The notes under the pieces: model-generated | Told to the model about the DNA's origin: nothing | What the model saw: the letters and a program-made list of their open reading frames with translations, nothing else | Database searches by the model: none | Part shown: piece by piece, positions 7,626-49,184 of the stretch | How the letters are laid out: the number at the start of each line of letters is the position of its first letter | Numbering within the stretch: the first letter of the stretch is position 1 | Translations under genes and position numbers: made by a program | Assembly: GCF_022045235.1 (NCBI RefSeq) | Contig: NW_027266330.1 | Coordinates: forward strand, 43,028,001 to 43,092,000 | Length of the DNA: 64,000 nt | From: Haliotis cracherodii | Lineage: Eukaryota | Direction of reading: 5' to 3'

Positions 7626-7801
7626 GTGTAGTGACGTCATGGGAGAAATGACGTATGTTGCCATGGGGAGTATATTGGCGTGTCTTGTGAAAGGAGAATG
7701 TTTGTAAACAAATGGTGGAAAATGGTAAATGGGAATAGTTACTAGTATTGTTTATGAGGAGCTGACCATAAACCGATTTAGCTAAATAATGCTAAATCAT
7801 A
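7626..7801 (-). repeat. Ngaro direct repeat A2 (copy 1)
   Basis: Near-identical to 13023-13197. Confidence 0.9.
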
Positions 7802-8303
7802 TTATGTTCAGACTACCTCCGATGAAAAGATTAACAAACAATGATGTTTTGTGGGATATAATGGGCAGAGTGTGGATGAGGCAGTCGGGGGGATAAGCAA
7901 GGTCCTACCGCGGACTAGAAATCGCATACAGCCCCTATCGCGGGTCAAGTTGTCCCTCCACCGTGCTTGGCAGACAGGACCCACAGCAAAGATACTATCA
8001 CTCCCCCCGCGGAAACAGCGGGCAGAAGAATTTGGGCTCCCACTGTAATTAGCAGGCAGCCAGAGTATCATACACACACCAGCATGGTGTTAAACCAAAT
8101 CCCCCGACTGCACCATGCCAAACAGCGGGGTGCAAAATGTATAAATACACTATGCACACCGCTGACATCCACACATTATATTATATTTGCATTAAATTAT
8201 GATGTGGAAGGGAGATGGGGAGTGGATAAGAGACTGGGAAGGAAAAGAAAATTATGCGCCTCCCCCCAAAGTGAAGTTATACATACTTACCCGAACAGTA
8301 CCT

Positions 8304-8836
8304 TTACTCATCACTAAACAATGTCCTGCGTACATTTGATTTAAAATGGGCCATGCCCGACCGGTTTAAATGAACTCCCCGAGGAGTATAAAATGGAGCA
8401 TCATGTTTGATCTGAGGGTGGGTACACCTTAGACCCCCCTCTTCCCTGATCACTCCCGCAATCCGCCTATTAATCAATTTTCTTTTCAGTTCAATCCTTT
8501 TAACATTGCTGGCTCCTCGCCAGGTTTGTCGAGGCAACATGTCAGACCATACCAATTTGGTATTCGGGAGTTTAAGTTGAGCGTATGTTATGTCCAGATA
8601 CATGTTTTCATAAAGTTCCTTTGTCCCCTTTGTACACAGATCATTTGATCCAAGGTGGATAAACAGAAGCTTCGGCTGGGGATGGCGGGCAACAAGTGTA
8701 TCCACTGCCTTGCGGAATTCCCCCCACTTCATTCCGCCCTTTGCATGCCAGCGGGTACCCGTCAGTAGGGAGTCCGATGTAGTGGCCAGATGGTCGTGGA
8801 ATCGGACCATATAACTGGACCCGATACACCATACAT
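8304..8836 (-). CDS. SGNH/GDSL hydrolase-like exon (copy 1)
   Basis: VWCIGSSY (block I, upstream of the track's ATG at 8810), KGG (II), HLGSND (III), GVHLN (V); preceded by a TTTCAG acceptor-like site. Confidence 0.85.
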
Positions 8837-9163
8837 CTGAAACTTAAAACACACTAGCAGCATCTTTGTTATAATAACATCTGCTTTATCTTTACCTANN
8901 NNNNNNNNNNNNNNNNNNNNNNNNNNNNNNNNNNNNNNNNNNNNNNNNNNNNNNNNNNNNNNNNNNNNNNNNNNNNNNNNNNNNNNNNNNNNNNNNNNNN
9001 NNNNNNNNNNNNNNNNNNNNNNNNNNNNNNNNNNNNNNNNNNNNNNNNNNNNNNNNNNNNNNNTAGAGTTAGTGAAAAAGTATGTATTATCCCGTTACCC
9101 CCGTGGAACCGCAACAGGCAGGAACGGCTGGTGAGTCTGTGTTTGTTTCTGCTAGGTATACTG

Positions 9164-10159
9164 TTAAGTGGTGAGTTGAGTAATGCGGATATATTTGCTG
9201 TAACAGTTTGATTTCCAACGCCCATATTTCTGAATCTGCTTGGAACTAACCCCATTAATTGCTGCTGTGGTAGCCGCTCCAATGCGAAAAGAGTGTGACG
9301 AAAACAAATGAAGATTGAGGTGTGGTAAAGAAAATGACAGGGCCTTTCTTAACATTGACTGAAATTGGAATCTATTTAAAGGACGTCCATCAAAATGGAC
9401 GAACACATGACCGTGCACTGGTGGTCTGATGGATAGAAACTGTTGCATTGCTCTGACAGGACACAGTCTAGAGTGAAGGATAGCTGTTATTTGTATTTGC
9501 ACACCTCTGCCGCCCTGATCCGTTTTGGATGAGCGTAAACATATCGTTATGTGACTTATATCTGCTGCCACATGAATATCAGACAAAAGACACGCCTTAT
9601 GCGAGAAATCCTTGGCTGACCCTGCCACCAGCTCGCTGATTCTAAAGAATCCAAAAAATGCAAGCAGGTATGCAGCTGTGAAAAGAGACGTTTCGTAAAC
9701 TGAAGCACAAACTACCGGTAATGCTGTGACAATAACAGACAATAAGTCAACTGTAATTGGGAGTCGAGTGTCAGCCTTCTGTTTCTGTCTGACAAATCCA
9801 ATCAAGGCTTTCTGAATAAGAAAATGGGATGTTAGGTCATGCATACCATGTAACTTTTGCCATGTTGTTAATGCTGATATATACGACTTTGCCGTGCGAG
9901 GAGATTTTCCTGTTAAGGAGAGATGAGCGATAAAATGCATAAGGTGATCAACCGGGGTGGGCCAAATGTGTGGCAGGCTGAAAGAGATGCGAAAAACATT
10001 AAATGACTTTAGTGCAGACTCATACAGGTTCCATGTGTTGAGTGCTAGAGAAGACTGCACTAGACGTTGCACCTCTGTCGTCAGATCTGCCATATGTCCT
10101 GTGGTATGTGTGCTGGTATCTCGTCTGCCTGCGGTGCTGCTTCTTTGAACCTGGACCAC
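9164..10159 (-). CDS. Tyrosine recombinase (copy 1)
   Basis: FFRISEL, SKTDQ, HSFRIGAAT, GRWKS and YIR: the full catalytic set. Confidence 0.95.
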   Translation of the reverse strand: MVQVQRSSTAGRRDTSTHTTGHMADLTTEVQRLVQSSLALNTWNLYESALKSFNVFRISFSLPHIWPTPVDHLMHFIAHLSLTGKSPRTAKSYISALTTWQKLHGMHDLTSHFLIQKALIGFVRQKQKADTRLPITVDLLSVIVTALPVVCASVYETSLFTAAYLLAFFGFFRISELVAGSAKDFSHKACLLSDIHVAADISHITICLRSSKTDQGGRGVQIQITAILHSRLCPVRAMQQFLSIRPPVHGHVFVHFDGRPLNRFQFQSMLRKALSFSLPHLNLHLFSSHSFRIGAATTAAINGVSSKQIQKYGRWKSNCYSKYIRITQLTT

Positions 10160-12003
10160 TGAAATCTCGAAAGTGCATCAGCTATAACGTTTGCATGCGT
10201 AGGAATATACGATGCTTTGAACAAGATATTATGTTGTAAACAGAGGAGTATCAGGCGCCTAAGCAACGACATAACTCGTGGTGGTTTTGCTGTTTGTTTA
10301 TTGATAATTGCTACCACTGCTTGGTTGTCACAAACAAACAACACTCGCTTATTTCGTAGATGTCTGCCCCACAGTCTTACTGCCAATACAATTGGAAAAA
10401 GCTCTAGCATAGTGATGTCTTTAGTCCATCCATTCTGCACCCACTCGTTAGGCCATCTGCCATTGGCCCATCTGCCCATGAAAAAGGCTCCGAAACCATG
10501 GTTACCTGACGCGTCGGTAAACAAATGTGTATCCGATGAATTGATCCACTCTGAATCTATAAATTCAGTAGTGCCATTGTGGTTTTGAAGAAATTGCCGC
10601 CATAAATTGAGGTCCTCGCGTATGCCTTGTGTTATCCTTATTCTGTGGTGAGGTTTTGACCCTCCGCGCTGTGCGTCAATGAGGCGTCTTAAAAAGGCGC
10701 GACCAATCGGAATTGCCCTACATACAAAATTAAGTTTCCCAAACAAGGACTGCAAGTAGTTTAATGTTGTTTTCTTCTTAAAAGGTGATAAAAGAGTATC
10801 TATTTCCTGCGTAAGCGGCACTACCTTATCCCTCGGTATGCTAATTTGCGCTTTGACTGTGTCTATTGTGATACCCAGGAACGTCATGTTTGTTGTAGGT
10901 AGAACCGTTTTGTCCTTTGCGACGGGAACGCCCATGTTTTGTAATAACTCCAGAGAGGACTGGAGAGTTTGTTGACACTTATTAGAGGCTAGTGCTGCCA
11001 ATGCAAAATCATCCAAATAATGTTGTATGTTATCATTTTTGGTGTATTTCCTGAGTACCCACTGCAAAAATGTGCTAAACTTTTCAAATGTTGCACATGA
11101 TATGGAACAGCCAAATGGAAGACATTTGTCAAAGTAGAAATTATGTTTGAATTGTATGCCCAGAAATTTAAAGTCATCTGGTCGTATAGGTATGAGGCGA
11201 AATGCAGACTTTATATCAAATTTTGCCATGTATGCACCCTTGCCTAATCCTTGTATCGCGGATAGCACCTGGTCAAAGCTAGTGTACTTGACTGTTGACA
11301 CCTCGTGTGATATGTAGTCGTTTACAGACTCTCCCTCAGGGTATGACAGATGGTGAATAAGTCTGAACGTTTGCTGAACTTGTTGATTATTGTGATTTGA
11401 CTTCTTCGGAACGAGACCGATTGGAGAAACTATCATATCTTGAAATGGTGGTGCTGTAAATGGACCTGCAATTCTACCTAGATCAACTTCTTTTTGTAGC
11501 ATTGTTGCCACCATGTTAGGATGTTGTTGTGCGGATTTTAAATTGTATGCCATTCTAGGACCCGGTGGACCCGTGTACTGTAGTGGAAAACCTCGAGAAA
11601 AACCTTCCGATAAAAACATAGCATCTGATGCGTAAAAGGGGGTGTAAATACTGAGTCTATGTGACAATACACGCATACTAATGGGTGTTGGCACTAGGCC
11701 TTGAGTTGGTATTGTTTGGGTTGGGTTTTGTTTGAGTACGGGGGGTTTTAACGCCCCCTTTTTGACGAAAGCATGTGTGTGCGCCGTGTGCAGTGCTGTC
11801 ACATGTGATGCATTTGTGTGCATATCGGCAGAAAGACCTTGTACATCCGAATTTGTTAAAATCCCAGCAAAACTTTGGGGTGCTACCGGTATTTGCGCTA
11901 TCCGCGTTGAGATTGCTGCGGTTGGTGGTAGTGGTGGTGTTTGTGACGCGCGCGTGTGCTGCTTGTTGATTTGGAAGCATATGTTGTAACCATAAATGGC
12001 CAT
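10081..12003 (-). CDS. Reverse transcriptase-RNase H (copy 1)
   Basis: DIKSAFR, LPFG, YLDDF; RNase H FTDAS, LEL, CDN, NVIADALSR. Confidence 0.95.
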   Translation of the reverse strand: MAIYGYNICFQINKQHTRASQTPPLPPTAAISTRIAQIPVAPQSFAGILTNSDVQGLSADMHTNASHVTALHTAHTHAFVKKGALKPPVLKQNPTQTIPTQGLVPTPISMRVLSHRLSIYTPFYASDAMFLSEGFSRGFPLQYTGPPGPRMAYNLKSAQQHPNMVATMLQKEVDLGRIAGPFTAPPFQDMIVSPIGLVPKKSNHNNQQVQQTFRLIHHLSYPEGESVNDYISHEVSTVKYTSFDQVLSAIQGLGKGAYMAKFDIKSAFRLIPIRPDDFKFLGIQFKHNFYFDKCLPFGCSISCATFEKFSTFLQWVLRKYTKNDNIQHYLDDFALAALASNKCQQTLQSSLELLQNMGVPVAKDKTVLPTTNMTFLGITIDTVKAQISIPRDKVVPLTQEIDTLLSPFKKKTTLNYLQSLFGKLNFVCRAIPIGRAFLRRLIDAQRGGSKPHHRIRITQGIREDLNLWRQFLQNHNGTTEFIDSEWINSSDTHLFTDASGNHGFGAFFMGRWANGRWPNEWVQNGWTKDITMLELFPIVLAVRLWGRHLRNKRVLFVCDNQAVVAIINKQTAKPPRVMSLLRRLILLCLQHNILFKASYIPTHANVIADALSRFQWSRFKEAAPQADEIPAHIPQDIWQI

Positions 12004-12879
12004 CTATTGCCCACCAGGATCGAGACGGGTCACGTTGCATCCTTTGTCTGAAACTACGGTCATATTGCAACCATGAATCTCCGCCGAACCTAATAGCAGC
12101 TCCCCTGATTGTTTCGCTGTAGGTAAGCAGATCCTGTATCTTATCCGGGTGTTTTTCTATGTATACGCTCATGTAGACGTTAAACGCCGATGTCCATGCG
12201 CCAATGCCTAATGGACGCGTTTGTTGTTGTTTGGGTTTAAAAATAATCTGACCTGTGGCGTCGAGCGCCAATGTAAATGCCGACATCTCTTGGGGTGTCT
12301 GATTTTGGGCCGATATTAGTTGTTTTAGCTCAATGAATTCGCCGTTGTGTATTTTTTCCCGTAGTTGTTGGGAAACATGTGATCCGATGTGTTCCGCTCT
12401 GATGTTTAACTGTATAGACAGGGTGTATTTGTCGCGGGTATGCCAAACATGGTTGGATCGTTTATATTCATAGTTGTGAAAGGATTGGGTGTTTGTGTTT
12501 GCTGTTGGGACGGATGCGTGTTATGTGCGTTTTCGCGTGCTAATGTACTAATGTTTATGTGCCCTTCATTGTTTGAAGACCTATCCCCAGTCGGCATCTG
12601 CGTGTCCCCGTTTGTGAGCGTGCTGTTAGCAAGCCTTGCCGTATTTGTAGGAAGCACTGTGTTAGCCGAGTTTGCATTATGCATAATATTGCTCGAATTG
12701 ATAAAAACAAAATCACTATCCAACGTACCTGCAGTGTATTGTGGTACTCCGCTGATCAGTCGTGAGCCAATTGGCGCATCCAAGTCTCTTCTATCCACAT
12801 TTCTGCTAACCCCCGTCCTACTGGCTTTCGGACCCTTCACCAGTCGGTGGGTCAGCGCCGCTTTCCTTTTAGGAGGCAT
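11678..12879 (-). pseudogene. gag-like gene split by a -1 frameshift (copy 1)
   Basis: MPPKRK ORF (12879-12406) and a -1-frame continuation IGSHVSQQLREKIHNGEFIEL...W..YD..FR...CWDFN..C....C...H.C..C....H....C (Zn fingers). Confidence 0.85.
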
Positions 12880-13019
12880 CCCAAACGAAGTAATGAGGTG
12901 AGGTGAAAACGCTATAGAGGTGAAACCGTAAGAGGTGAAATGCTAACCGCCGGACGCGTTGTGTTGTGTTGTTAGAATGACTTGACGGTTGGGGAGTAAA
13001 AGAAGTGACATCACGAGAC

Positions 13020-13052
13020 CACGTGTAGTGACGTCATGGGAGAAATGACGTA
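13020..13052. promoter_or_regulatory. E-box plus CRE cluster at the Ngaro 5' repeat
   Basis: CACGTG (13020-13025), perfect CRE palindrome TGACGTCA (13029-13036) and a second TGACGTA site; function inferred. Confidence 0.4.
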
Positions 13053-13197
13053 TGTTGCCATGGGGAGTATATTGGCGTGTCTTGTGAAAGGAAATGTTTG
13101 TAAACAAATGGTGGAAAATGGTAAATGGGAATACTTACTAGTATTGTTTATGCGGAGCTGACCATAAACCGATTTAGCTAAATAATGCTAAATCATA
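13023..13197 (-). repeat. Ngaro direct repeat A1 (5' terminus, copy 1)
   Basis: Matches 7626-7801; joins the Polinton gene at the position equivalent to 2435. Confidence 0.9.
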
Positions 13198-17434: not shown

Positions 17435-18112
17435 GTGTAGTGACGTCATGGGAGAAATGACGTATGTTGCCATGGGGAGTATATTGGCGTGTCTTGTGAA
17501 AGGAGAATGTTTGTAAACAAATGGTGGAAAATGGTAAATGGGAATAGTTACTAGTATTGTTTATGAGGAGCTGACCATAAACCGATTTAGCTAAATAATG
17601 CTAAATCATATTATGTTCAGACTACCTCCGATGAAAAGATTAACAAACAATGATGTTTTGTGGGATATAATGGGCAGAGTGTGGATGAGGCAGTCGGGGG
17701 GATAAGCAAGGTCCTACCGCGGACTAGAAATCGCATACAGCCCCTATCGCGGGTCAAGTTGTCCCTCCACCGTGCTTGGCAGACAGGACCCACAGCAAAG
17801 ATACTATCACTCCCCCCGCGGAAACAGCGGGCAGAAGAATTTGGGCTCCCACTGTAATTAGCAGGCAGCCAGAGTATCATACACACACCAGCATGGTGTT
17901 AAACCAAATCCCCCGACTGCACCATGCCAAACAGCGGGGTGCAAAATGTATAAATACACTATGCACACCGCTGACATCCACACATTATATTATATTTGCA
18001 TTAAATTATGATGTGGAAGGGAGATGGGGAGTGGATAAGAGACTGGGAAGGAAAAGAAAATTATGCGCCTCCCCCCAAAGTGAAGTTATACATACTTACC
18101 CGAACAGTACCT

Positions 18113-18645
18113 TTACTCATCACTAAACAATGTCCTGCGTACATTTGATTTAAAATGGGCCATGCCCGACCGGTTTAAATGAACTCCCCGAGGAGTATAA
18201 AACGGAGCATCATGTTTGATCTGAGGGTGGGTACACCTTAGACCCCCCTCTTCCCTGATCACTCCCGCAATCCGCCTATTAATCAATTTTCTTTTCAGTT
18301 CAATCCTTTTAACATTGCTGGCTCCTCGCCAGGTTTGTCGAGGCAACATGTCAGACCATACCAATTTGGTATTCGGGAGTTTAAGTTGAGCGTATGTTAT
18401 GTCCAGATACATGTTTTCATAAAGTTCCTTTGTCCCCTTTGTACACAGATCATTTGATCCAAGGTGGATAACCAGAAGCTTCGGCTGGGGATGGCGGGCA
18501 ACAAGTGTATCCACTGCCTTGCGGAATTCCCCCCACTTCATTCCGCCCTTTGCATGCCAGCGGGTACCCGTCAGTAGGGAGTCCGATGTAGTGGCCAGAT
18601 GGTCGTGGAATTGGACCATATTACTGGACCCGATACACCATACAT
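18113..18645 (-). CDS. SGNH hydrolase-like exon (copy 2)
   Basis: As copy 1 (GSSN variant). Confidence 0.85.
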
Positions 18646-18964
18646 CTGAAACTTAAAACACACTAGCAGCATCTTTGTTATAATAACATCTGCTTTATCT
18701 TTACCTANNNNNNNNNNNNNNNNNNNNNNNNNNNNNNNNNNNNNNNNNNNNNNNNNNNNNNNNNNNNNNNNNNNNNNNNNNNNNNNNNNNNNNNNNNNNN
18801 NNNNNNNNNNNNNNNNNNNNNNNNNNNNNNNNNNNNNNNNNNNNNNNNNNNNNNNNNNNNNNNNNAGAGTTAGTGAAAAAGTATGTATTATCCCGTTACC
18901 CCCGTGGAACCGCAACAGGCAGGAACGGCTGGTGAGTCTGTGTTTGTTTCTGCTAGGTATACTG

Positions 18965-19960
18965 TTAAGTGGTGAGTTGAGTAATGCGGATATATTTGCT
19001 GTAACAGTTTGATTTCCAACGCCCATATTTCTGAATCTGCTTGGAACTAACCCCATTAATTGCTGCTGTGGTAGCCGCTCCAATGCGAAAAGAGTGTGAC
19101 GAAAACAAATGAAGATTGAGGTGTGGTAAAGAAAATGACAGGGCCTTTCTTAACATTGACTGAAATTGGAATCTATTTAAAGGACGTCCATCAAAATGGA
19201 CGAACACATGACCGTGCACTGGTGGTCTGATGGATAGAAACTGTTGCATTGCTCTGACAGGACACAGTCTAGAGTGAAGGATAGCTGTTATTTGTATTTG
19301 CACACCTCTGCCGCCCTGATCCGTTTTGGATGAGCGTAAACATATCGTTATGTGACTTATATCTGCTGCCACATGAATATCAGACAAAAGACACGCCTTA
19401 TGCGAGAAATCCTTGGCTGACCCTGCCACCAGCTCGCTGATTCTAAAGAATCCAAAAAATGCAAGCAGGTATGCAGCTGTGAAAAGAGACGTTTCGTAAA
19501 CTGAAGCACAAACTACCGGTAATGCTGTGACAATAACAGACAATAAGTCAACTGTAATTGGGAGTCGAGTGTCAGCCTTCTGTTTCTGTCTGACAAATCC
19601 AATCAAGGCTTTCTGAATAAGAAAATGGGATGTTAGGTCATGCATACCATGTAACTTTTGCCATGTTGTTAATGCTGATATATACGACTTTGCCGTGCGA
19701 GGAGATTTTCCTGTTAAGGAGAGATGAGCGATAAAATGCATAAGGTGATCAACCGGGGCGGGCCAAATGTGTGGCAGGCTGAAAGAGATGCGGAAAACAT
19801 TAAATGACTTTAGTGCAGACTCATACAGGTTCCATGTGTTGAGTGCTAGAGAAGACTGCACTAGACGTTGCACCTCTGTCGTCAGATCTGCCATATGTCC
19901 TGTGGTATGTGTGCTGGTATCTCGTCTGCCTGCGGTGCTGCTTCTTTGAACCTGGACCAC
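18965..19960 (-). CDS. Tyrosine recombinase (copy 2)
   Basis: As copy 1. Confidence 0.95.
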   Translation of the reverse strand: MVQVQRSSTAGRRDTSTHTTGHMADLTTEVQRLVQSSLALNTWNLYESALKSFNVFRISFSLPHIWPAPVDHLMHFIAHLSLTGKSPRTAKSYISALTTWQKLHGMHDLTSHFLIQKALIGFVRQKQKADTRLPITVDLLSVIVTALPVVCASVYETSLFTAAYLLAFFGFFRISELVAGSAKDFSHKACLLSDIHVAADISHITICLRSSKTDQGGRGVQIQITAILHSRLCPVRAMQQFLSIRPPVHGHVFVHFDGRPLNRFQFQSMLRKALSFSLPHLNLHLFSSHSFRIGAATTAAINGVSSKQIQKYGRWKSNCYSKYIRITQLTT

Positions 19961-21813
19961 TGAAATCTCGAAAGTGCATCAGCTATAACGTTTGCATGCG
20001 TTGGAATATACGATGCTTTGAACAAGATATCATGTTGTAAACAGAGGAGTATCAGGCGCCTAAGCAACGACATAACTCGTGGTGGTTTTGCTGTTTGTTT
20101 ATTGATAATTGCTACCACTGCTTGGTTGTCACAAACAAACAACACTCGCTTATTTCGTAGATGTCTGCCCCACAGTCTTACTGCCAATACAATTGGAAAA
20201 AGCTCTAGCATAGTGATGTCTTTAGTCCATCCATTCTGCACCCACTCGTTAGGCCATCTGCCATTGGCCCATCTGCCCATGAAAAAGGCTCCGAAACCAT
20301 GGTTACCTGACGCGTCGGTAAACAAATGTGTATCCGATGAATTGATCCACTCTGAATCTATAAATTCAGTAGTGCCATTGTGGTTTTGAAGAAATTGCCG
20401 CCATAAATTGAGGTCCTCGCGTATGCCTTGTGTTATCCTTATTCTGTGGTGAGGTTTTGACCCTCCGCGCTGTGCGTCAATGAGGCGTCTTAAAAAGGCG
20501 CGACCAATCGGAATTGCCCTACATACAAAATTAAGTTTCCCAAACAAGGACTGCAAGTAGTGTAATGTTGTTTTCTTCTTAAAAGGTGATAAAAGAGTAT
20601 CTATTTCCTGCGTAAGCGGCACTACCTTATCCCTCGGTATGCTAATTTGCGCTTTGACTGTGTCTATTGTGATACCCAGGAACGTCATGTTTGTTGTAGG
20701 TAGAACCGTTTTGTCCTTTGCGACGGGAACGCCCATGTTTTGTAATAACTCCAGAGAGGACTGGAGAGTTTGTTGACACTTATTAGAGGCTAGTGCTGCC
20801 AATGCAAAATCATCCAAATAATGTTGTATGTTATCATTTTTGGTGTATTTCCTGAGTACCCACTGCAAAAATGTGCTAAACTTTTCAAATGTTGCACATG
20901 ATATGGAACAGCCAAATGGAAGACATTTGTCAAAGTAGAAATTATGTTTGAATTGTATGCCCAGAAATTTAAAGTCATCTGGTCGTATAGGTATGAGGCG
21001 AAATGCAGACTTTATATCAAATTTTGCCATGTATGCACCCTTGCCTAATCCTTGTATCGCGGATAGCACCTGGTCAAAGCTAGTGTACTTGACTGTTGAC
21101 ACCTCGTGTGATATGTAGTCGTTTACAGACTCTCCCTCAGGGTATGACAGATGGTGAATAAGTCTGAACGTTTGCTGAACTTGTTGATTATTGTGATTTG
21201 ACTTCTTCGGAACGAGACCGATTGGAGAAACTATCATATCTTGAAATGGTGGTGCTGTAAATGGACCTGCAATTCTACCTAGATCAACTTCTTTTTGTAG
21301 CATTGTTGCCACCATGTTAGGATGTTGTTGTGCGGATTTTAAATTGTATGCCATTCTAGGACCCGGTGGACCCGGTGGACCCGTGTACTGTAGTGGAAAA
21401 CCTCGAGAAAAACCTTCCGATAAAAACATAGCATCTGATGCGTAAAAGGGGGTGTAAATACTGAGCCAATGTGACAATACACGCATACTAATGGGTGTTG
21501 GCACTAGGCCTTGAGTTGGTATTGTTTGGGTTGGGTTTTGTTTGAGTACGGGGGGTTTTAACGCCCCCTTTTTGACGAAAGCATGTGTGTGCGCCGTGTG
21601 CAGTGCTGTCACATGTGATGCATTTGTGTGCATATCGGCAGAAAGACCTTGTACATCCGAATTTGTTAAAATCCCAGCAAAACTTTGGGGTGCTACCGGT
21701 ATTTGCGCTATCCGCGTTGAGATTGCTGCGGTTGGTGGTAGTGGTGGTGTTTGTGACGCGCGCGTGTGCTGCTTGTTGATTTGGAAGCATATGTTGTAAC
21801 CATAAATGGCCAT
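19882..21813 (-). CDS. RT-RNase H (copy 2; 9-bp in-frame GPP duplication)
   Basis: As copy 1, with GPPGPPGPR. Confidence 0.95.
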   Translation of the reverse strand: MAIYGYNICFQINKQHTRASQTPPLPPTAAISTRIAQIPVAPQSFAGILTNSDVQGLSADMHTNASHVTALHTAHTHAFVKKGALKPPVLKQNPTQTIPTQGLVPTPISMRVLSHWLSIYTPFYASDAMFLSEGFSRGFPLQYTGPPGPPGPRMAYNLKSAQQHPNMVATMLQKEVDLGRIAGPFTAPPFQDMIVSPIGLVPKKSNHNNQQVQQTFRLIHHLSYPEGESVNDYISHEVSTVKYTSFDQVLSAIQGLGKGAYMAKFDIKSAFRLIPIRPDDFKFLGIQFKHNFYFDKCLPFGCSISCATFEKFSTFLQWVLRKYTKNDNIQHYLDDFALAALASNKCQQTLQSSLELLQNMGVPVAKDKTVLPTTNMTFLGITIDTVKAQISIPRDKVVPLTQEIDTLLSPFKKKTTLHYLQSLFGKLNFVCRAIPIGRAFLRRLIDAQRGGSKPHHRIRITQGIREDLNLWRQFLQNHNGTTEFIDSEWINSSDTHLFTDASGNHGFGAFFMGRWANGRWPNEWVQNGWTKDITMLELFPIVLAVRLWGRHLRNKRVLFVCDNQAVVAIINKQTAKPPRVMSLLRRLILLCLQHDILFKASYIPTHANVIADALSRFQWSRFKEAAPQADEIPAHIPQDIWQI

Positions 21814-22689
21814 CTATTGCCCACCAGGATCGAGACGGGTCACGTTGCATCCTTTGTCTGAAACTACGGTCATATTGCAACCATGAATCTCCGCCGAACC
21901 TAATAGCAGCTCCCCTGATTGTTTCGCTGTAGGTAAGCAGATCCTGTATCTTATCCGGGTGTTTTTCTATGTATACGCTCATGTAGACGTTAAACGCCGA
22001 TGTCCATGCGCCAATGCCTAATGGACGCGTTTGTTGTTGTTTGGGTTTAAAAATAATCTGACCTGTGGCGTCGAGCGCCAATGTAAATGCCGACATCTCT
22101 TGGGGTGTCTGATTTTGGGCCGATATTAGTTGTTTTAGCTCAATGAATTCGCCGTTGTGTATTTTTTCCCGTAGTTGTTGGGAAACATGTGATCCGATGT
22201 GTTCCGCTCTGATGTTTAACTGTATAGACAGGGTGTATTTGTCGCGGGTATGCCAAACATGGTTGGATCGTTTATATTCATAGTTGCGAAAGGATTGGGT
22301 GTTTGTGTTTGCTGTTGGGACGGATGCGTGTTATGTGCGTTTTCGCGTGCTAATGTACTAATGTTTATGTGCCCTTCATTGTTTGAAGACCTATCCCCAG
22401 TCGGCATCTGCGTGTCCCCGTTTGTGAGCGTGCTGTTAGCAAGCCTTGCCGTATTTGTAGGAAGCACTGTGTTAGCCGAGTTTGCATTATGCATAATATT
22501 GCTCGAATTGATAAAAACAAAATCACTATCCAACGTACCTGCAGTGTTCTGTGGTACTCCGCTGATCAGTCGTGAGCCAATTGGCGCATCCAAGTCTCTT
22601 CTATCCACATTTCTGCTAACCCCCGTCCTACTGGCTTTCGGACCCTTCACCAGTCGGTGGGTCAGCGCCGCTTTCCTTTTAGGAGGCAT
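21488..22689 (-). pseudogene. gag-like gene, frameshifted (copy 2)
   Basis: Same split as copy 1. Confidence 0.85.
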
Positions 22690-22995
22690 CCCAAACGAAG
22701 TAATGAGGTGAGGTGAAAACGCTATAGAGGTGAAACCGTAAGAGGTGAAATGCTAACCGCCGGACGCGTTGTGTTGTGTTGTTAGAATGACTTGACGGTT
22801 GGGGAGTAAAAGAAGTGACATCACGAGACCACGTGTAGTGACGTCATGGGAGAAATGACGTATGTTGCCATGGGGAGTATATTGGCGTGTCTTGTGAAAG
22901 GAGAATGTTTGTAAACAAATGGTGGAAAATGGTAAATGGGAATAGTTACTAGTATTGTTTATGCGGAGCTGACCATAAACCGATTTAGCTAAATA

Positions 22996-23494
22996 ATGCT
23001 AAATCATAATAAAAAGTATCGCAGAGCCGTGAATGCTCTGGACGGAGTTGACACCGCTCTTGTAGTAGCTGGCATGGGACTCGGTGTAGCCGGTGTCGGT
23101 TTACTATCAACTATAATCGCCGCGCCTATCGTGCTCGGCATGGAAATAACCGCCGGAGTCTCGGGACTGGCAGGAATAGCGATAAAATTCATTTCTCGTA
23201 GGTTACAAAAGAAAGCATTAAAACACGATAGTATTCGGATACTCGCCGAAGCAAAGTTGAACAGCATTGAGGATCATATTTCGACAGCAATGGCCGATTG
23301 TAAGATATCCGAGGAGGAGTTTCGTTTAGTGCTGTCGGAACTCACCAAATACAACGTAATGAAGCAGGAGATTCGATCAAAATCTCGTAAGACCAATGGT
23401 ATTCGGAAGACGAGAAAAAAAAGTTCATAGAACAAGGGAGGCAACAAGCGCGTCAATTATTCCGTGCCAAAACCAAAGAACTGGTTGGAGATTA
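22996..23494 (+). pseudogene. Chimeric truncated Polinton membrane-protein ORF with late frameshift
   Basis: ATTCGGAAGACG here versus ATTAGCGAAGACG in other copies gives an early stop at 23430. Confidence 0.6.
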
Positions 23495-23556
23495 AAAATA
23501 AATTGCTTACTATCGTGTGATTACATTTAGACAAATGCTTACATAAATATATAATA

Positions 23557-23814
23557 ATGGAGAAAACTATTAAATGGAGAGAATTACCACAAGGTTTTTA
23601 TTATATCAGTGATGTCAAACCAACCAAATACGGTAATCAATTGTTTCTTATCAATTAACAAGAAGAGTGTAGTTATATAGTCTGGTCTCCTGGTAAAATG
23701 AACGAAGAACTTAATAAAAATGTTGAATATCGCTTTATCGATAAAAATAATGAAGAATATTTTTATTACCATTTAGGCTCATCTAAAGCAATGATTGGCC
23801 CCAGGTATTGGTGA
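23557..23814 (+). pseudogene. 85-aa Polinton ORF with TTA>TAA nonsense
   Basis: CAATTAACAAG versus CAATTTACAAG. Confidence 0.6.
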
Positions 23815-23823
23815 GCTAGAGCT

Positions 23824-23950
23824 GAATCTCATGACTATCGTTGAATCGCATAATCATTTTGGCATAAAAAATTCCATCTGTCGTAGCAGTATAGGTATAT
23901 GAATCCAGCTCCAGTGGAAGTGGTCCAGAACCCCCATTACCTATACTACT
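23824..23950. repeat. Polinton right TIR (unit 3)
   Basis: Copy of 3251-3377. Confidence 0.85.
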
Positions 23951-24357
23951 CAAGGTCTCAGCCGGTCGCTTTTCGCTTTCGTGCAACTCTTATCAGGCTG
24001 AGCCCCAAACACGCCTTTATTTATGTCTGACAAATTCATTTATACTTCCAACCTCTTTGCAATGCCAAAGTCTATCTGCCTATACATTTTTATTCCGTTC
24101 CGACTATTTTTGGTTTTTGCCGAAAAGACAGCTATCTGTTAAGCCGTTTTGGCTGTATTTTAGCCACCATTGTTGAGTGAATTAAGAAGTTTTTGGATCA
24201 TTCTCGGATCTTTGCCATGGAAGTTTCTTGTCAATTAACGAGGTCTTAGCCGGTCATTTTTCACTTTCGCACAACTCTCATCGGCCATGTTGGGAGCCCC
24301 CAAACACCCCTTTCTTTAACTTCCAACCTCTTTGCTATGCTAAGGTCTACCTATCTA

Positions 24358-24400
24358 GACCCGTGAAGATTCTGGGGTAGAATACCCATGCTTGCCTTAA
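24358..24400 (+). mobile_element. SINE fragment, 5' part (unit 3; interrupted)
   Basis: Continues at 29316. Confidence 0.7.
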
Positions 24401-27400
24401 CCTTTAGCCTGCTGAATTGTTTTCAGACTTCTTGGCCCTGCCTGCTGGATTAATTTTAGCATAAGGCGATGTAAAGAGGGTGGGTGATTTCAAACAGCTG
24501 GTGCTTCATTATACAAGGGCCAATTGAAGAAATATTTTGCACATTTATTCCTGACAGAAAAATACACATTACTATGTAAAAAAATCCTGATGTTTTCAAT
24601 CATACCAAGGTTAAGACCAAAACGAACACAAAATTTGTAAATTTTCGTAATCTTGCCTGAATTACGATATTGAAGGTGGTTTACGTTTCATGTTAGGAAC
24701 CTTTCTAAATCGTTAAATTTGTGCTAATTGATTTCAATAATCAGATCACCGATATCTTAATTTTAACTGAGTATAAATTCGATGTTTTTTATTGGTAAGT
24801 AACAGCGCGGTGGTAAATTATGAACCATTTCTGTAAATTTATTATCAAAACGTTAAACAGAAAAAAAACTAAATTTTCGAGGTCACCATGTCAGTTGCAG
24901 AAATACGAACATTCGAGTTAATCTAACATGTCACGTTATCAAATTTGCAGGAAACAATAAATGACTCATGAATATTCACCAATCCTTATTTCATGTGTTT
25001 TGGTTGAATATTTACGATATACGAAAATACAAATACCGTGTCATGATGCTAGCAGACGTTCGAACATCAAACATGGCGCGCTTCGCCCGACCTCGTCGTA
25101 ACTTATTGCTATTTTAATATCAACAAAGTTTACACTGTCTTCATGTTTATAACTTGGCGAAAGTTGACGATCTTCTCAATCGAAGATTCTTTCATTTGTC
25201 ATTTTCCGTTTAATATGACGAGAGAAAAATGAAAATAAAGATCGTAAATTCTGACAGCAATATTTCAGTTTGCGCAAAGGTCACCGGATGTGATGTCACA
25301 GACAGGGGTAGTCTGCTGATAATCTTTCGAAACAAAACAATTTCAGTCAATTTTGAAATATTTCGCCTGTATTATAAAGAATAAACACAAATCACTACAT
25401 ACTATCAGTAATCGCTACTAACATGAAATTACAAAGTGATTTTCACGATATAATTGACGTATTTTTTAATCCGTTGGACCTTGCATGCTCCCGTGACCCG
25501 GAAACACGCCACATGCAAGTTTCTCGGTATCTTTTATTTGAACTTTTGTTGATACATAAGGATCACCATTCCATGTTACGTTGAATATAAAGTGATATGA
25601 TTCATGTATCTGCGATGTATATGTTGATTACTTTGTTTTCACTATAATAATTATGTGTTTGAAGCAATAAGTCCATAGAAATCGTCGATCGACAACGATC
25701 ACACCCCACAACAGGTGCGCGATAATAGGCGTCACAAAACGTGTTTCAAAATAGCATTCATGCGATGCCGAATATGGTAGGATATACGCAGGTGGGTGAT
25801 GTAAATATATATATTAAAAAATACGATATACATATTTTCAGTGTTAGTTTCTAATTAAATGTGGGATATTTAAATATTTTTTCCTTTTATAATTTAATAC
25901 ATTTATCGATTCTAGATCTAGCATGATTTTACAACAATTCATGGATCATCTTAAAATTTATTCCATCAATATAGAGACCGCCATGATTGCGTATTGATGA
26001 TAGATTTGTTAATGTTTAATTATATACATCTGTTCACAGCTTCTAAAATATTAAGTTATATTTAGTATCTATTTTTTCCACAATGATTATGTGTATGGAT
26101 ACTAAATATTGGTCAACAGGTCAATGCATCAGCACAGTGTAACTGATCAGACTTTAATTACATATTTTATTCAACAATTGTCTTCTTTCACCTGAACATA
26201 AATTATGTGAATAAGTAACTATTTGATGTCATTATTTAAGTTTAGTATTTCATAAAATAATATAGAAATAGATAAGATCCTTATATGAACCTATACATAC
26301 ACAACTCATATGGACATTAATCTTGTGTATGAAGTTGTTTGTTTCCAAAAAACTAATTCTTAAATATAATTGTAATATGAATACGATACATTAATTTCTT
26401 GTAACAGAACATGATATTTTTGTTTGTTTAATCACAAGAACCAGGGTGGCACTTAGCTGGTGAGTTAGCCATATCGTATATTTATAAGAGAATGTTATCT
26501 TTTGAAAAAGGAATAGGGCACATATACATACATTGACAATTCTTGCAGTTCTGTTCGGTTGGAGAAATGTACATGGAAATATCCTACCTTATGTATTTTT
26601 TCAGGGTTCTCACCAATGAAACAATGTGTAATTAGTGTGGCAGGACTTTCCAGGTTTGTTGCAGTATGCTCTAGTGTGCTTGACAGTGACACTCATGCAT
26701 GTCCCCTGAAGGAACATGAACCATTGTGAAATGTGATCAACAGGTTTTCGTCTTCAGTCAATATAATGTACAAAAATTCTAAATAAATGCAGATCATCAC
26801 CAGCTTTGGATCTGACATCCTTAATCATTTTGATGGGTTTCTGAATATACAGTCAGTATAGGTCCTTATGTTCTTTGTGTCTCAGCCTTCTGGATGGAAT
26901 GAAAAGAAATGTCCCTGTATACATGATTACCTTTGTCAGATGTATTTTGTCCTGTCAGCCACACCCCCTGACTTTATTTCACCTTATGTGGTTAATTTTC
27001 GCATACATGTACTGCTGCAAACCTGTTTTTCCCTTGTATATGCAATCACAGTATCAAACTTAATCAGCTGGTGTGTCACTAGTTCCTCAGTTGGTGTGTA
27101 TAAAAGTGCCCTTGCCATCATGAAACAAGAAATGCCAAAAACCAAAGCATTTGCAATAACAAAAAACCCACATTTGTCCTTTCTTGAATAATCTTAGGAT
27201 TAGTGCTTCAAATTTTTTGTGTCATAAATTAATTATTAAATTTCCTAAGGATTTTTCTTTGATGGACCAATATCAAACCATCTGACAAGTTAGACTGAAT
27301 TATTACTTTAAAAGCCCTCATTTCTGAGGTGTCCATATTTTTTTTCTACTTTTAGGACAACATGAGCCGTCTACCTGAGCTTGGTTACGTAAACAAATAC

Positions 27401-29315
27401 TTGTTTAAAATGTGAAATGGAATTCCACTGATTAGATATCTTTTTTTTTATCTCATTGTTCTATGAAATCCATTTGAAATGTGCTTTTTTGTACGTAAAA
27501 TGTCTTGAGAGCTTGTACCCAAACAGGTATGTGCTTTTGTGCCCAGAATATTTTTGTATTACAGTTTTGTAGTTTCAAACTTACACATTGCTTTTTATAT
27601 GAAAAAAGTTAATTTATTATCACTTTTCTGTCAATTCGCTAGATCTACAATTACCTTACGGTTTACCAATTTACTGGCCTCTTCTCTTCACAAGAATTTA
27701 TTACTTTCCTATCACAATCAGTCAATTTGAGTTGTGCCAATGTGGACTGACTACACTCAAGGACCACGTACATTTAGGTTAGTCATATTATTGATGAAAT
27801 GTTTTACCATAATGTTCAGCTCATTGTTTGCAATAAACATGAAAAAATAAATATGATCAACAAGATTTAGTTTAGTTTTTTGGGTACAAAATCATCAAGT
27901 GCTTTGGGTACAATTTTGTTTTGGGTACAAAATCACATAGGCCCTACATTTATCCAGTCGACGTGAGTACCTACTTCCATCCGTTCTGAAGATTGGGGAG
28001 GGGGAGTAAACGTTCTAAAAACAATCCTTAATATTCTAAATTGTCCTTCTTGCAATGACAGACCAATAACAATCTTCTGTTGTTATTATTATGGCATATT
28101 AATATGTTAAATCGCTCTCCGCTGTCGTCGTTTTCAGAAAATAATTTTAAAATCATCGAACGCGGAATCCTTTACGGTTTCGGATTTAGACTTACAAATT
28201 TGGTGTTACGCATCGGCGGCAATCACGTATAAATATGAAACAAATAGGAGTGAAGACTGCTATCCAGATCAATAAATAGTAAACAAATGTCGAAAAAAAG
28301 TAAACTATGTATTTTCTTTTGAATTTGAATCTATTTCGGAATTTGTTTTATGATCGCTTACCAACTTTTGCATATTTTGCTTCGATGTGTCATGCGGTAC
28401 GTGCTTCCGGTTTCAGAAATGATAGGTTAAATTGCAAGTATTTCGATTATTTTCCGTAAACTGCATTATATTGCTATTGCATGATTTACCTAGAATGTAT
28501 AACAGTTCAGATTTTGCGTATCATCCAATATTTGTCATTATTTGCAGTGTTTGTTGACTTTATTCAACTACACAAATCGCGAGTTAGGCCACGCCCAAAC
28601 GTATCACCGACGTTTGTCGGCTTGTTGATGTGTCCGAAAGTTTATCAAACGAAATCATTTGAAAACTCTATAAAAATGATATGTTTTTACACAGATTTAT
28701 ACATTCGTGTCAATAATTCTAGAAAATGAAGTTAGATGTAACAAAATTATTATAATAGTCTTACGGGATCATTATGCATGTGGAGTTGTTTGTTTACCGC
28801 CGTTGCCATGATCGCACAAGTTTCATCCAATCGATGATGTTACGATTCAGATTGTTTTTGTTTATAATTAATTACTTCGAAAATTGCTAATTTTTAGAAA
28901 TTAAGGAACTTGAGTGTGTTCCTTTCGTCGGCAAACAATAAATTATGATCGATTGTGAAAAGTCATAACATTATAAAGAAAATATCGGACTGCATGCCGA
29001 TCAGCGTGAAGTGCCAAAAGTCAACAATGCCGTTTGTGGTAGTTGTGTGCCGCGAAGTTTGGCTGAAACTTTTTAAACTCGCGATATTTTCTTTTTGAGG
29101 TAAATACACTACTGAAAGTTTTGATATTGAGCAAGCTGAGCATTTATGCATGCCATACGTAATTTAAATGTAACGCAAAGCCTTCTTGGTAAATAGATAT
29201 GGCGAGTTTTGTTTGTGGGTGTCCTAATGCTATTCGCCTGTCGAACTGGTTCGACAGTAGCAACACTGGTAGTGACAAACTCTGTCGAACTGGTTCGACA
29301 GTAGCATTGAGAGCT
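24401..29315. mobile_element. 4.9-kb TTAA-site DNA transposon insertion, non-autonomous or decayed (possibly Crypton-like)
   Basis: Absent from the other five units; TTAA at 24397-24400 and 29316-29319 where the empty site has a single TTAA; no long ORF. Confidence 0.85.
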
Positions 29316-29535
29316 TTAAAAGGCGACTATGCTTGTCGTAAAAGGCGACTAACGGGATCGGCTGGTCAGACTCGCTGACTTAGTTGATGCATGTCATCGA
29401 TCCCAATTGCGCTGATCGATGCTCATGATATAAATCACTTGATTGTCTGGTCAAGAATTGATTATTTTACAGACCGCCATCATATAGATGGAGTATTGCT
29501 GAGTGTGGCGTTAAACAACAAACCAATCCAAACCA
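29316..29535 (+). mobile_element. SINE fragment, 3' part (unit 3)
   Basis: Resumes at TTAAAAGGCGACT. Confidence 0.7.
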
Positions 29536-29537
29536 CA

Positions 29538-32164
29538 GACAAAAAGTTCAAGTCGCTTTATGTATTTTCAGTGCCTTGTGATTTTTAATGGAATTCATTG
29601 TGTATCGGACATCTAAGACTGCATCCATGCACCAAATTTGTTTTGTATACTGAGACTGATACTTTCTGGTTAGCTTGTGTAAAAGTCAAGTTGCTGAAGT
29701 ATTTTCAGTGATGAGTGTCAGACATCTAATTCATCCACATACACAATATGATATTCTTCCCGAGGACGTATCCTTTCGAAGATGTAAAAGTCATGCACAT
29801 GACAAAAAGTTCATGTCGGTGTATGTATTTTCAGTGCCTTGTGATTTTTAATGGAATTCATCTGTGTCGGACATCTAAGACTGCATCCATGCACCAAATT
29901 TGTTTTGTATACTGAGACTGATACTTTCTGGTTAGCTTGTAGAAAAAACAAGTCGCTTTATGTATTTCCAGTGACTTTTGATTTTTAATGGAATTCATTG
30001 TGTGTCTGACATCTAAGACTGCATCCATGCACCAAATTTGTTTTGTATACTGAGACTGATACTTTCTGGTTAGCTTGTGGAAAGGTCAAGTCGCTTTATG
30101 TATTTTCAGTGCCTTTTGATTTTTAATGGAATTCATTATGTGGCGGACATCTAAGACTGCATCCATGCACCAAATTTGTTTTGTATACTGAGACTGATAC
30201 TTTGTGGTTAGCTTGTGGAAAAGTCAGGTTGCTGAGACATCTAAGAAATCTTCCACATACACAATATGATATTCTTCCCGAGGATGTAAAAGTCATGCAC
30301 ATGACAAAAAGTTCAAGTCGCTTTATGTATTTTCAGTGCCTTTTGAATTTTTAATGGAATTCATTATGTGTCGGACATCTAAGACTGCATCCATGCACCA
30401 AATTTGTTTTGTATACTGAGACTGATAATTTAAGGTTAGTTTGTGGAAAAGTCAAGTTGCTGATGTATTTTCAGTGATGAGTGTCAGACATAAATATGAT
30501 ATTCCTGAGGATGGATTCTTTCCAAAGATGTTAAAGTCATGCACATGACAAAAAATTCAAGTCGCTTTATGTATTTTCAGTGCCTTGTGATTTTTAATGG
30601 AATTCATTGTGTGTCGGACATCTAAGACTGCATCCATGCACCAAATTTGTTTTGTATACTGAGACTGATACTTTGTGGTTAGCTTGTAGAAAAGTCAGGT
30701 TGCTGAGACATCTAAGAATTCTTCCAAATATACAATATGATATTCTTCCCGAGGATGTAAAAGTCATGCACCTGTCAAAAAGTTCAAGTCGCTTTATGTA
30801 TTTTCAGTGCCTTGTGATTTTTAATGGAATTCATTATGTGTCGGACATCTAAGACTGCATCCATGCACCAAATTTGTTTTGTATACTGAAACTGATACTT
30901 TCTGGTTAGCTTGTGTAAAAGTCAAGTTGCTAAAGTATTTTCAGTGATGAGTATCAGACATCTAATTCATCCACATACACAATATGATATTCTTCCCGAG
31001 GACGTATCCTTTCGAAGATGTAAAAGTCATGCACATGACAAAAAGTTCATGTCGGTGTATGTATTTTCAGTGCCTTGTGATTTTTAATGGAATTCATCTG
31101 TGTCGGACATCTAAGACTGCATCCATGCACCAAATTTGTTTTGTATACTGAGACTGATACTTTCTGGTTAGCTTGTAGAACAAACAAGTCGCTTTATGTA
31201 TTTCCAGTGACTTTTGATTTTTAATGGAATTCATTGTGTCTTGGACATCTAAGACTGCATCCATGCACAAAATTTGATTGTATACTAAGACTGATACTTT
31301 GAGGTTAGCTTGTGGAAAAGTCAAGTTGTTGATGTATTTTCAGTGCCTTGTGATTTTTAATGGAATTCATTGTGTGTCGGACATCTAAGACTGCATCCAT
31401 GCACCAAATTTGTTTTGTATACTGAGACTGATACTTTCAGGTTAGCTTGTGGAAAAGTCAGGTTGCTGAGACATCTAAGAATTCTTCCACATACACAATA
31501 TGATATTCTTCCTGAGGATGTAAAAGTCATGCACCTGACAAAAAGTTCAAGTCGCTTTATGTATTTTCAGTGCCTTGTGATTTTTAATGGAATTCATCTG
31601 TGTCGGACATCTAAGACTGCATCCATGCACAAAATTTGATTGTATACTAAGACTGATACTTTGAGGTTAGCTTGTGGAAAAGTCAAGTTGCTGATGTATT
31701 TTCAGTGATGAGTGTCAGACATCTAATTCATCCACATACACAATATGATATTCTTCCTGAGGACGTATCCTTTCGAAGATGTAAAAGTCATGCACATGAC
31801 AAAAAGTTCATGTCGGTGTATGTATTTTCAGTGCCTTGTGATTTTTAATGGAATTCATTATGTGGCGGACATCTAAGACTGCATCCATGCACCAAATTTG
31901 TTTTGTATACTGAGACTGATACTTTGTGGTTAGCTTGTGGAAAGGTCAGGTTGCTGAGACATCTAAGAAATCTTCCACATACACAATATGATATTCTTCC
32001 CGAGGATGTAAAAGTCATGCACATGACAAAAAGTTCAAGTCGCTTTATGTATTTTCAGTGCCTTTTGAATTTTTAATGGAATTCATTGTGTGTCGGACAT
32101 CTAAGACTGCATCCATGCACCAAATTTGTTTTGTATACTGAGACTGATAATTTAAGGTTAGTTT
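29538..32164. repeat. Modular EcoRI satellite array (unit 3)
   Basis: Same monomer order as unit 2. Confidence 0.95.
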
Positions 32165-32842
32165 GTGTAGTGACGTCATGGGAGAAATGACGTATGTTGC
32201 CATGGGGAGTATATTGGCGTGTCTTGTGAAAGGAGAATGTTTGTAAACAAATGGTGGAAAATGGTAAATGGGAATAGTTACTAGTATTGTTTATGCGGAG
32301 CTGACCATAAACCGATTTAGCTAAATAATGCTAAATCATATTATGTTCAGACTACCTCCGATGAAAAGATTAACAAACAATGACGTTTTGTGGGATATAA
32401 TGGGCAGAGTGTGGATGAGGCAGTCGGGGGGATAAGCAAGGTCCTACCGCGGACTAGAAATCGCATACAGCCCCTATCGCGGGTCAAGTTGTCCCTCCAC
32501 CGTGCTTGGCAGACAGGACCCACAGCAAAGATACTATCACTCCCCCCGCGGAAACAGCGGGCAGAAGAATTTGGGCTCCCGCTGTAATTAGCAGGCAGCC
32601 AGAGTATCATACACACACCAGCATGGTGTTAAACCAAATCCCCCGACTGCACCATGCCAAACAGCGGGGTGCAAAATGTATAAATACACTATGCACACCG
32701 CTGACATCCACACATTATATTATATTTGCATTAAATTATGATGTGGAAGGGAGATGGGGAGTGGATAAGAGACTGGGAAGGAAAAGAAAATTATGCGCCT
32801 CCCCCCAAAGTGAAGTTATACATACTTACCCGAACAGTACCT

Positions 32843-33375
32843 TTACTCATCACTAAACAATGTCCTGCGTACATTTGATTTAAAATGGGCCATGCCCGAC
32901 CGGTTTAAATGAACTCCCCGAGGAGTATAAAACGGAGCATCATGTTTGATCTGAGGGTGGGTACACCTTAGACCCCCCTCTTCCCTGATCACTCCCGCAA
33001 TCCGCCTATTAATCAATTTTCTTTTCAGTTCAATCCTTTTAACATTGCTGGCTCCTCGCCAGGTTTGTCGAGGCAACATGTCAGACCATACCAATTTGGT
33101 ATTCGGGAGTTTAAGTTGAGCGTATGTTATGTCCAGATACATGTTTTCATAAAGTTCCTTTGTCCCCTTTGTACACAGATCATTTGATCCAAGGTGGATA
33201 AACAGAAGCTTCGGCTGGGGATGGCGGGCAACAAGTGTATCCACTGCCTTGCAGAATTCCCCCCACTTCATTCCGCCCTTTGCATGCCAGCGGGTACCCG
33301 TCAGTAGGGAGTCCGATGTAGTGGCCAGATGGTCGTGGAATCGGACCATATAACTGGACCCGATACACCATACAT
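32843..33375 (-). CDS. SGNH hydrolase-like exon (copy 3)
   Basis: As copy 1. Confidence 0.85.
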
Positions 33376-33702
33376 CTGAAACTTAAAACACACTAGCAGC
33401 ATCTTTGTTATAATAACATCTGCTTTATCTTTACCTANNNNNNNNNNNNNNNNNNNNNNNNNNNNNNNNNNNNNNNNNNNNNNNNNNNNNNNNNNNNNNN
33501 NNNNNNNNNNNNNNNNNNNNNNNNNNNNNNNNNNNNNNNNNNNNNNNNNNNNNNNNNNNNNNNNNNNNNNNNNNNNNNNNNNNNNNNNNNNNNNNNNNNN
33601 NNNNNAGTTATTGAAAAAGTATGTATTATCCCGTTACCCCCGTGGAACCGCAACAGGCAGGAACGGCTGGTGAGTCTGTGTTTGTTTCTGCTAGGTATAC
33701 TG

Positions 33703-37418: not shown

Positions 37419-37725
37419 CCCAAACGAAGTAATGAGGTGAGGTGAAAACGCTATAGAGGTGAAACCGTAAGAGGTGAAATGCTAACCGCCGGACGCGTTG
37501 TGTTGTGTTGTTAGAATGACTTGACGGTTTTGGGAGTAAAAGAAGTGACATCACGAGACCACGTGTAGTGACGTCATGGGAGAAATGACGTATGTTGCCA
37601 TGGGGAGTATATTGGCGTGTCTTGTGAAAGGAGAATGTTTGTAAACAAATGGTGGAAAATGGTAAATGGGAATAGTTACTAGTATTGTTTATGCGGAGCT
37701 GACCATAAACCGATTTAGCTAAATA

Positions 37726-38226: not shown

Positions 38227-38287
38227 AAATAAATTGCTTACTATCGTGTGATTACATTTAGACAAATGCTTACATAAATATATAATA

Positions 38288-38545
38288 ATGGAGAAAACTA
38301 TTAAATGGAGAGAATTACCACAAGGTTTTTATTATATCAGTGATGTCAAACCAACCAAATACGGTAATCAATTGTTTCTTATCAATTAACAAGAAGAGTG
38401 TAGTTATATAGTCTGGTCTCCTGGTAAAATGAACGAAGAACTTAATAAAAATGTTGAATATCGCTTTATCGATAAAAATAATGAAGAATATTTTTATTAC
38501 CATTTAGGCTCATCTAAAGCAATGATTGGCCCCAGGTATTGGTGA
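38288..38545 (+). pseudogene. 85-aa Polinton ORF with TTA>TAA nonsense
   Basis: Same nonsense as unit 3. Confidence 0.6.
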
Positions 38546-38554
38546 GCTAGAGCT

Positions 38555-39347: not shown

Positions 39348-39349
39348 CA

Positions 39350-49182: not shown

Positions 49183-49184
49183 CA

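Follow-up and report, generated by a model that had tools for sequence, protein, structure and literature searches.

We analyzed a 64,000-nucleotide stretch of the Haliotis cracherodii genome (NCBI RefSeq assembly GCF_022045235.1, contig NW_027266330.1, forward-strand positions 43,028,001 to 43,092,000; hereafter the window, with positions counted from its first letter), which holds five minus-strand copies of a 5.6-kb Ngaro-type retrotransposon. The open reading frames (ORFs) for Gag, a reverse transcriptase (RT) with RNase H and a tyrosine recombinase (YR) all lie on one strand, and an SGNH hydrolase ORF (the esterase) follows YR. The sequences indicate, with a probability that we put at about 0.87, that a splice donor in the gag leader is alternatively joined to phase-1 acceptors at the esterase and at the recombinase. 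At that probability we regard the scheme as real; it appears not to have been described for this element family, which is itself known. Because other retroelements are well known to express genes by splicing, the mechanism as such is no categorical novelty.

The copy analyzed in detail contains both sites of the predicted esterase splice, at the coordinates and in the shared phase 1 proposed by a first-pass annotation of this DNA. On the minus strand, the coding part of the shared first exon (12729..12879) starts with the gag AUG at 12879, spans 50 codons plus 1 nt and encodes a Lys/Arg-rich Gag leader. It ends at a CAG/GTACGT donor (12723..12731; first intron base 12728), 151 nt from the AUG. 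The acceptor (8836..8856, minus strand; ...TTTTAAGTTTCAG before the first exon base, junction 8837/8836) opens the SGNH esterase exon (8304..8836, minus strand; PF13472 with an E value of 2e-4, below the curated cut-off), whose frame is open for 176 codons from 8834 to a stop ending at 8304. An in-frame TAA sits three codons ahead of block I of the esterase and the earliest in-frame AUG, at 8810, falls past the catalytic Ser, which bears out the earlier observation that block I has no upstream in-frame AUG and a stop just before it. By arithmetic alone, joining the two sites removes an intron of 3892 nt and predicts a product of 50 + 1 + 176 = 227 amino acids, in agreement with the 227-residue fusion and the intron of about 3.9 kb proposed before. 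With splice-site scores based on generic weights, the donor at 12728 ranks first of the 205 GT dinucleotides between the element 5' end and the acceptor (5.8 bits, the next scoring 3.7), and among 247 AGs the esterase acceptor comes 9th, with no better-scoring AG within 150 nt of block I. Other candidate donors score lower: a TAG/GTAAAG site 59 nt upstream of the esterase acceptor (8895; 2.9 bits), a site at 9098 (less than 2 bits), and weak phase-1 sites in pol (10505) and YR (9504 and 9846). The 8895 AG/GT site reads GTAAGT in two older copies, L034 and L036; no coding upstream exon is evident for it. Both splice sites are present in 5/5 copies in the window, as the first-pass annotation had stated, but this conservation carries no evidential weight because the copies are near-identical units of one tandem array (99.5–99.8% mutual identity).

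The comparison that does carry weight is the one between families, for which the presence of phase-1 gag donors and YAG acceptors in other Ngaro families had been suggested as a check; the acceptor was found in 14/14 families and the donor in 9/10. Two genome searches, each scoring 150 of approximately 390 candidates, provided 80 usable loci, which were sorted into 14 families at 70% identity; three singletons were placed with family A, and 7 of the 14 families were first defined from the later batch of loci. In 75 of the 80 loci, a phase-1 YAG ends at −2 or +1 relative to the Val codon of block I, compared with an upstream YAG density of 0.032 per nt, and the pyrimidine fraction just ahead of it is 0.64–0.82. 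The YAG at L038 and L050 is accidental, the misses are L036, L090, L100, L106, and L107, and no block I match was obtained in L087. Where the YAG ends at +1, its G is part of the Val codon, leaving only two free letters. The sequence upstream of the acceptor shows a weak, AT-rich likeness between families; the open frame there spans from 3 to more than 70 codons and in some families contains in-frame AUGs ahead of block I.

The donor count covers the 10 families in which the gag AUG could be located; it leaves out T, V, W, and X, whose broken copies gave no locatable AUG. The nine positive families have a phase-1 donor of at least 4.5 bits within 300 nt of the gag AUG, at +100 to +253; family C has, in addition, a phase-0 donor at +39 that is weaker. 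Other coding sequence (24,456 nt) contained 24 phase-1 donors of at least 4.5 bits, so 0.29 would be expected per 300 nt, and synonymous resampling in seven families gave an expectation of 0.02–0.20 such donors per family. A calculation by hand yields p ~3e-5 for 9/10 families if the families are independent, which they are not fully.

Spliced forms were then found among database proteins. A search with the esterase profile gave 4245 proteins at E ≤0.001; the 150 top-ranking matches were considered. P0006 (RefSeq XP_071093596.1, encoded at 3 H. cracherodii loci) consists of the 42-residue family-P leader joined to the esterase, with the junction at the sites scored beforehand in the family-P donor and acceptor test, and P0015, a RefSeq protein of H. 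rufescens, fuses the leader and esterase of family Y at the sites predicted for them. The named proteins that match a sister family of this genome at 98–100% come from Haliotis. Of 56 single-domain matches with a leader of 30–260 residues, 13 have a basic, disordered one. An oyster-type leader ending in ...QGSTA continues into Gag in P0169 (Logan, 65 members), into the esterase in three RefSeq proteins (P0063, P0167, and P0171) and two Logan proteins (P0154 and P0178, on contigs of 1136 and 1168 bp, respectively), and into the RT frame in P0172–P0174, which are oyster gene models only. A sister leader, that of the Gag protein P0177, continues into a recombinase in P0176 (Logan contig of 1073 bp), which matches the window YR with an E value of 6e-16. 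Because these Logan contigs (1073–1168 bp) leave no room for the skipped gag core and RT, they encode the joined form; judged by their lengths, a joined leader::esterase or leader::YR form exists whether the Logan runs are RNA or DNA. We infer the gene order of the oyster-type genomic element from homology. Altogether, these results establish the sites, their phases and their conservation, and they show that the spliced form occurs in sister families as well as in oyster-type elements. Among the other matches, lizard, snake, frog, and fish models (P0071, P0112, P0155, P0105, P0119, and P0069) have the same esterase with longer leaders, some of them basic and some in multiple isoforms; these vertebrate models possibly share the same splice. 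P0002–P0005, P0007, and P0008 are proteins of 1300–3100 residues with 4–6 stretches that match the Ngaro esterase profile, and may be chains of gene models or host genes.

The same donor appears to serve a second acceptor. The first-pass annotation had proposed a single splice to the esterase, which is supported, and had missed an acceptor ahead of the recombinase. In the window, this predicted phase-1 acceptor (10158..10175, minus strand) lies inside the RNase H 'SRFQ' codons, with its first exon base, 10158, in frame with YR; joining the donor at 12728 to it predicts a leader::recombinase of 381 amino acids. A phase-1 CAG lies ahead of YR in 12/12 scorable families (9 of 28 loci were dropped, so families W and X are unscored), at the usual place in 10 and 6 nt later in 2, and these two are the families without the usual Gln codon. 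An AUG at the homologous YR start is missing in 6/12 families. Two family-O copies, L061 and L100, in which the homologous site is used, lack exactly positions 2936–5269 of L058, a stretch that runs in phase 1 from the GT of the predicted donor to the AG ahead of YR. The deletion shows one letter of microhomology and the two copies are 91% alike. They are the sole 2 GT-AG-bounded gaps among 41 gaps in 69 copy comparisons, some gaps being counted repeatedly as insertions in the reference copy, and the donor-to-YR join is spanned by 2 of 13 matches. On this pattern, L061 and L100 are best read as reverse-transcribed spliced RNA. Two further family-O copies, L108 and L111, share a near-identical 2.5-kb internal deletion off the splice sites and represent a second non-autonomous lineage.

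Several observations weigh against alternative splicing from the gag leader. In the window's own family, joints 12729–8836 or 12729–10158 were found in 0/4 sequencing runs (X1, X5, and X6, guessed to be RNA, and X21, of unknown kind; 4 of the 24 listed, none of which is recorded as RNA), covered as contigs only, which drop rare forms. Unspliced contigs cross the esterase acceptor in 4/4 runs and the donor in three of them (X1, X5, and X21), and neither X1 nor X5 shows the esterase at greater depth than YR. A protein search with the window esterase, which gave 1 match among 18 candidates, yielded no leader::esterase protein of this family. A genomic copy of the leader::esterase splice was absent as well: 0 of 82 family-B exon starts were without the acceptor A, and there were 0 family-A matches. 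The RefSeq models are predictions, and in P0157 and its relatives (family P) the same donor forms part of an implausible mosaic of five exons. Among strong background donors phase 1 is the commonest anyway (24/38), so phase alone is weak evidence; the early donor of highest score in family B is in phase 0, at +294, and family U offers only a weak site, of 3.3 bits. In several families the score of the YR acceptor is poor (−1.9 to 6.2 bits), and the site is at the same time a Gln codon of RNase H. The abalone families showed no conserved RT acceptor, and in the window family no clear one was found, and the family counts are not independent owing to shared ancestry. For the window family, the most that follows from the contigs is that the spliced form does not dominate in those runs. 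Pattern searches for genomic donor-to-YR copies gave 10/10 unspliced family-A matches and a lone family-B match that is a point change, and a family-B leader DNA search, in which the best 40 of 114 candidates were all unspliced, is uninformative at that scope. One X6 contig skips 146 nt of YR (9555–9700), with GT...AG ends on the element strand and three other letters in between, out of frame and as a single sighting. The proposal that the esterase is expressed like env from a spliced RNA is supported through sister families, conserved sites, and Logan contigs, and the window family's own junction is missing from the contigs of the four runs. We infer that the window family uses these exact sites.

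Other explanations account for parts of these data. The esterase could be spliced as predicted while translation of YR starts at an AUG of its own or relies on ribosomal frameshifting off the RT frame, the splice of L061 and L100 being cryptic. Frameshifting for YR was proposed in the 2015 review by Poulter and Butler, as quoted in PMC13003380, an AUG is found at the YR start in 6/12 families, the window family included, and the YR acceptor is both weak and a Gln codon. However, that AUG is absent from the other 6 families, the acceptor moves by 6 nt with its phase kept where the Gln is lost, and the YR splice is present in two genomic copies (91% alike) and in the Logan-derived oyster-type leader::YR protein. 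We therefore regard a recombinase made without splicing as improbable. It seems less probable still that the esterase acceptor is real and that the window family joins it to another upstream exon (from 8895, 9098, a pol or YR donor, or a trans-spliced leader) or no longer splices. The absence of the donor-to-esterase junction from the contigs of four runs fits this explanation, as do the TAG/GTAAAG site 59 nt upstream and the weak phase-1 donors at 10505, 9504, and 9846, but the donor at 12728 outscores all the other GTs of the 205 and is the one used by sister families. In addition, the 8895 donor comes after an A-rich stretch that is closed in frame in dispersed copies, and the 9098 site scores below 2 bits.

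The least probable explanation, to which we give very little credence, is that the sites arose by chance, that the esterase is reached by re-initiation or a non-AUG start or is untranslated, and that the database fusions are prediction artefacts. Mosaic RefSeq models do occur among these elements, and some families have upstream in-frame AUGs in an open frame. Nevertheless, the phase-1 YAG is kept in 14/14 families though the length of the upstream open frame varies widely, 1.1-kb Logan contigs encode the fusion, and GT-AG-exact genomic deletions exist, by which a chance origin is already largely refuted. Alternative joining of the gag-leader donor to the esterase and recombinase acceptors thus remains our preferred explanation. 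A broader version of it, in which Ngaro elements from protists to molluscs and vertebrates express RT, YR, and esterase all from one gag AUG through one donor and three acceptors, has in our view an even chance of being correct.

The element is assigned to the Ngaro type by its split repeats, its set of ORFs, and its SGNH ORF. Split repeats in the order A1...B1-A2-B2 are complete in the dispersed copies L031 and L032, where the full A and B repeats measure 270–272 and 317–324 bp, respectively. The window copy has A1 (12930..13197, minus strand, approximately 270 bp, its inner edge set by the joint at 12930; 13023–13200 recurs at 7626–7804), B1 (7797..8119, minus strand, position inferred from L032), and a truncated A2 (7626..7804, minus strand), with B2 absent and satellite DNA following. 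Contig joints 13197–7810 and 8119–12930 match the expectation from this A/B repeat layout. The gag gene (11681..12879, minus strand) encodes a CCCH finger and is divided in the window into two frames (12879–12409 and 12520–11681); in L031 and L032 it is a single frame of 399 amino acids. We therefore rejected the gag frameshift as a family trait: with full A1...B1-A2-B2 repeats and one gag frame in L031 and L032, the element is of the Ngaro type and the lesion is particular to the array. The bypass of this frameshift, formerly listed in favor of the spliced product, is thus incidental. The pol frame (RT, thumb, and RNase H; 10084..12003, minus strand) and the YR frame (9164..10177, minus strand, with an AUG at 10093 here that is not kept across families) match PF00078 (E 2.4e-17) and PF00589 (E 8.9e-7), respectively, and the CCCH and RNase H matches are weak. 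No Pfam match to a methyltransferase domain after RNase H was found in the pol frame, which stops just past RNase H. In dispersed family-A copies (L031–L037), an AATAAA-rich tract ahead of the esterase acceptor could terminate YR messages before the esterase exon.

The four further tandem copies (17435..57405, minus strand) have their gag AUGs at 22689, 37418, 47253, and 57083 and their esterase exon starts at 18645, 33375, 43187, and 53022. The tandem units are approximately 9.8 kb long, each with satellite DNA, and one unit spacing is 14.7 kb. The array (2435–57405) also holds a fragment of the gene at 2266–2919 (weak DUF4781). We take the ORFs at 71–2919 to be Polinton-like in appearance, for which Pfam gives no support.

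The window esterase keeps the block I Ser, the Asn of GSND, and the His, and has Arg at the position of the triad Asp (8370–8385). This position is Arg in the window family, Glu in families B and P, and Asp in six others (five families were not parsed); the ENA protein P0001 also has Arg. In the PDB, the esterase profile matches best to the esterase of ZfL2-1 ORF1p (4C1B, E 1.5e-9). According to PMC3905857, ZfL2-1 ORF1p bears an arginine-rich motif, with RNA cross-linking cited for a fragment that contains it, and its esterase binds liposomes even with active-site mutations; liposome binding without an intact active site fits a family with Arg at the triad Asp. As in the abalone fusion, the ZfL2-1 motif lies upstream of the SGNH domain; unlike it, ZfL2-1 ORF1p comes from a single unspliced ORF, has a coiled coil, and keeps the Ser-Asp-His triad intact, whereas the abalone basic segment would be borrowed from Gag by splicing and is followed by a domain with Arg at the Asp position. 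An RNA-binding role of the basic leader is as likely as that of a nuclear localization signal.

These data suggest a model in which one transcript starting in A1 is left whole or has its leader donor spliced to either YR or the esterase. The unspliced RNA would serve as the Gag message and as the template that is reverse-transcribed, and the single gag AUG would yield both the 227-residue leader::esterase and the 381-residue leader::recombinase. For RT, the route may be frameshifting, an internal AUG, or a third acceptor. The basic leader probably tags each enzyme for the RNA particle of the element or for the nucleus, and leader::esterase would recreate the layout of an arginine-rich motif plus esterase seen in CR1/L2-type ORF1 proteins.

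Retroviral and errantiviral env and foamy-virus pol are expressed from spliced subgenomic RNAs, and copia, BARE, and EVADE make a spliced gag RNA. The scheme proposed here resembles that of retroviral env in having one 5' donor, alternative acceptors to downstream genes, and an unspliced RNA as genome. It differs from it in that the abalone element is a YR retrotransposon without long terminal repeats or env, the donor lies 100–250 nt inside gag, so that the products would carry a basic Gag leader of 33–84 residues, and even the recombinase appears to arise by splicing. Among animal Ngaro elements with an SGNH hydrolase ORF, PMC9210276 describes Xenopus DIRS-53_XT and DIRS-54_XT, in which the function of the hydrolase is unproven; they share with the abalone element the order gag, RT/RNase H, YR, SGNH and the A1...B1-A2-B2 split repeats. 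The words 'splic', 'intron', and 'subgenomic' do not occur in that paper, whereas our data support splicing as the route to the hydrolase and YR. In the portions available of PMC9210276, PMC7192593, PMC13003380, PMC9341512, PMC4157794, PMC3905857, PMC3783388, PMC8547959, and PMC12477816, splicing of Ngaro ORFs is not mentioned. Like the first-pass annotation, which knew of none, we found no description of it in the literature searched, a scope that excludes supplements, Repbase Reports, and Goodwin and Poulter 2004.

How the second to fourth ORFs of YR retrotransposons are translated has been open, frameshifting being the published guess for YR as quoted in PMC13003380. The conserved donor and acceptors supply exact junctions that can be tested with existing RNA reads, and they give the recombinase and the esterase new N-termini, a point that matters for any biochemical work. 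Non-autonomous copies such as L061 are thereby explained as reverse transcripts of spliced RNA, and a set of 'uncharacterized' mollusc RefSeq genes as transposon isoforms. If one donor indeed serves three acceptors, each enzyme would receive the same basic Gag tag recruiting it to the element RNA, and the overlapping ORFs long taken for frameshift sites would be acceptor positions.

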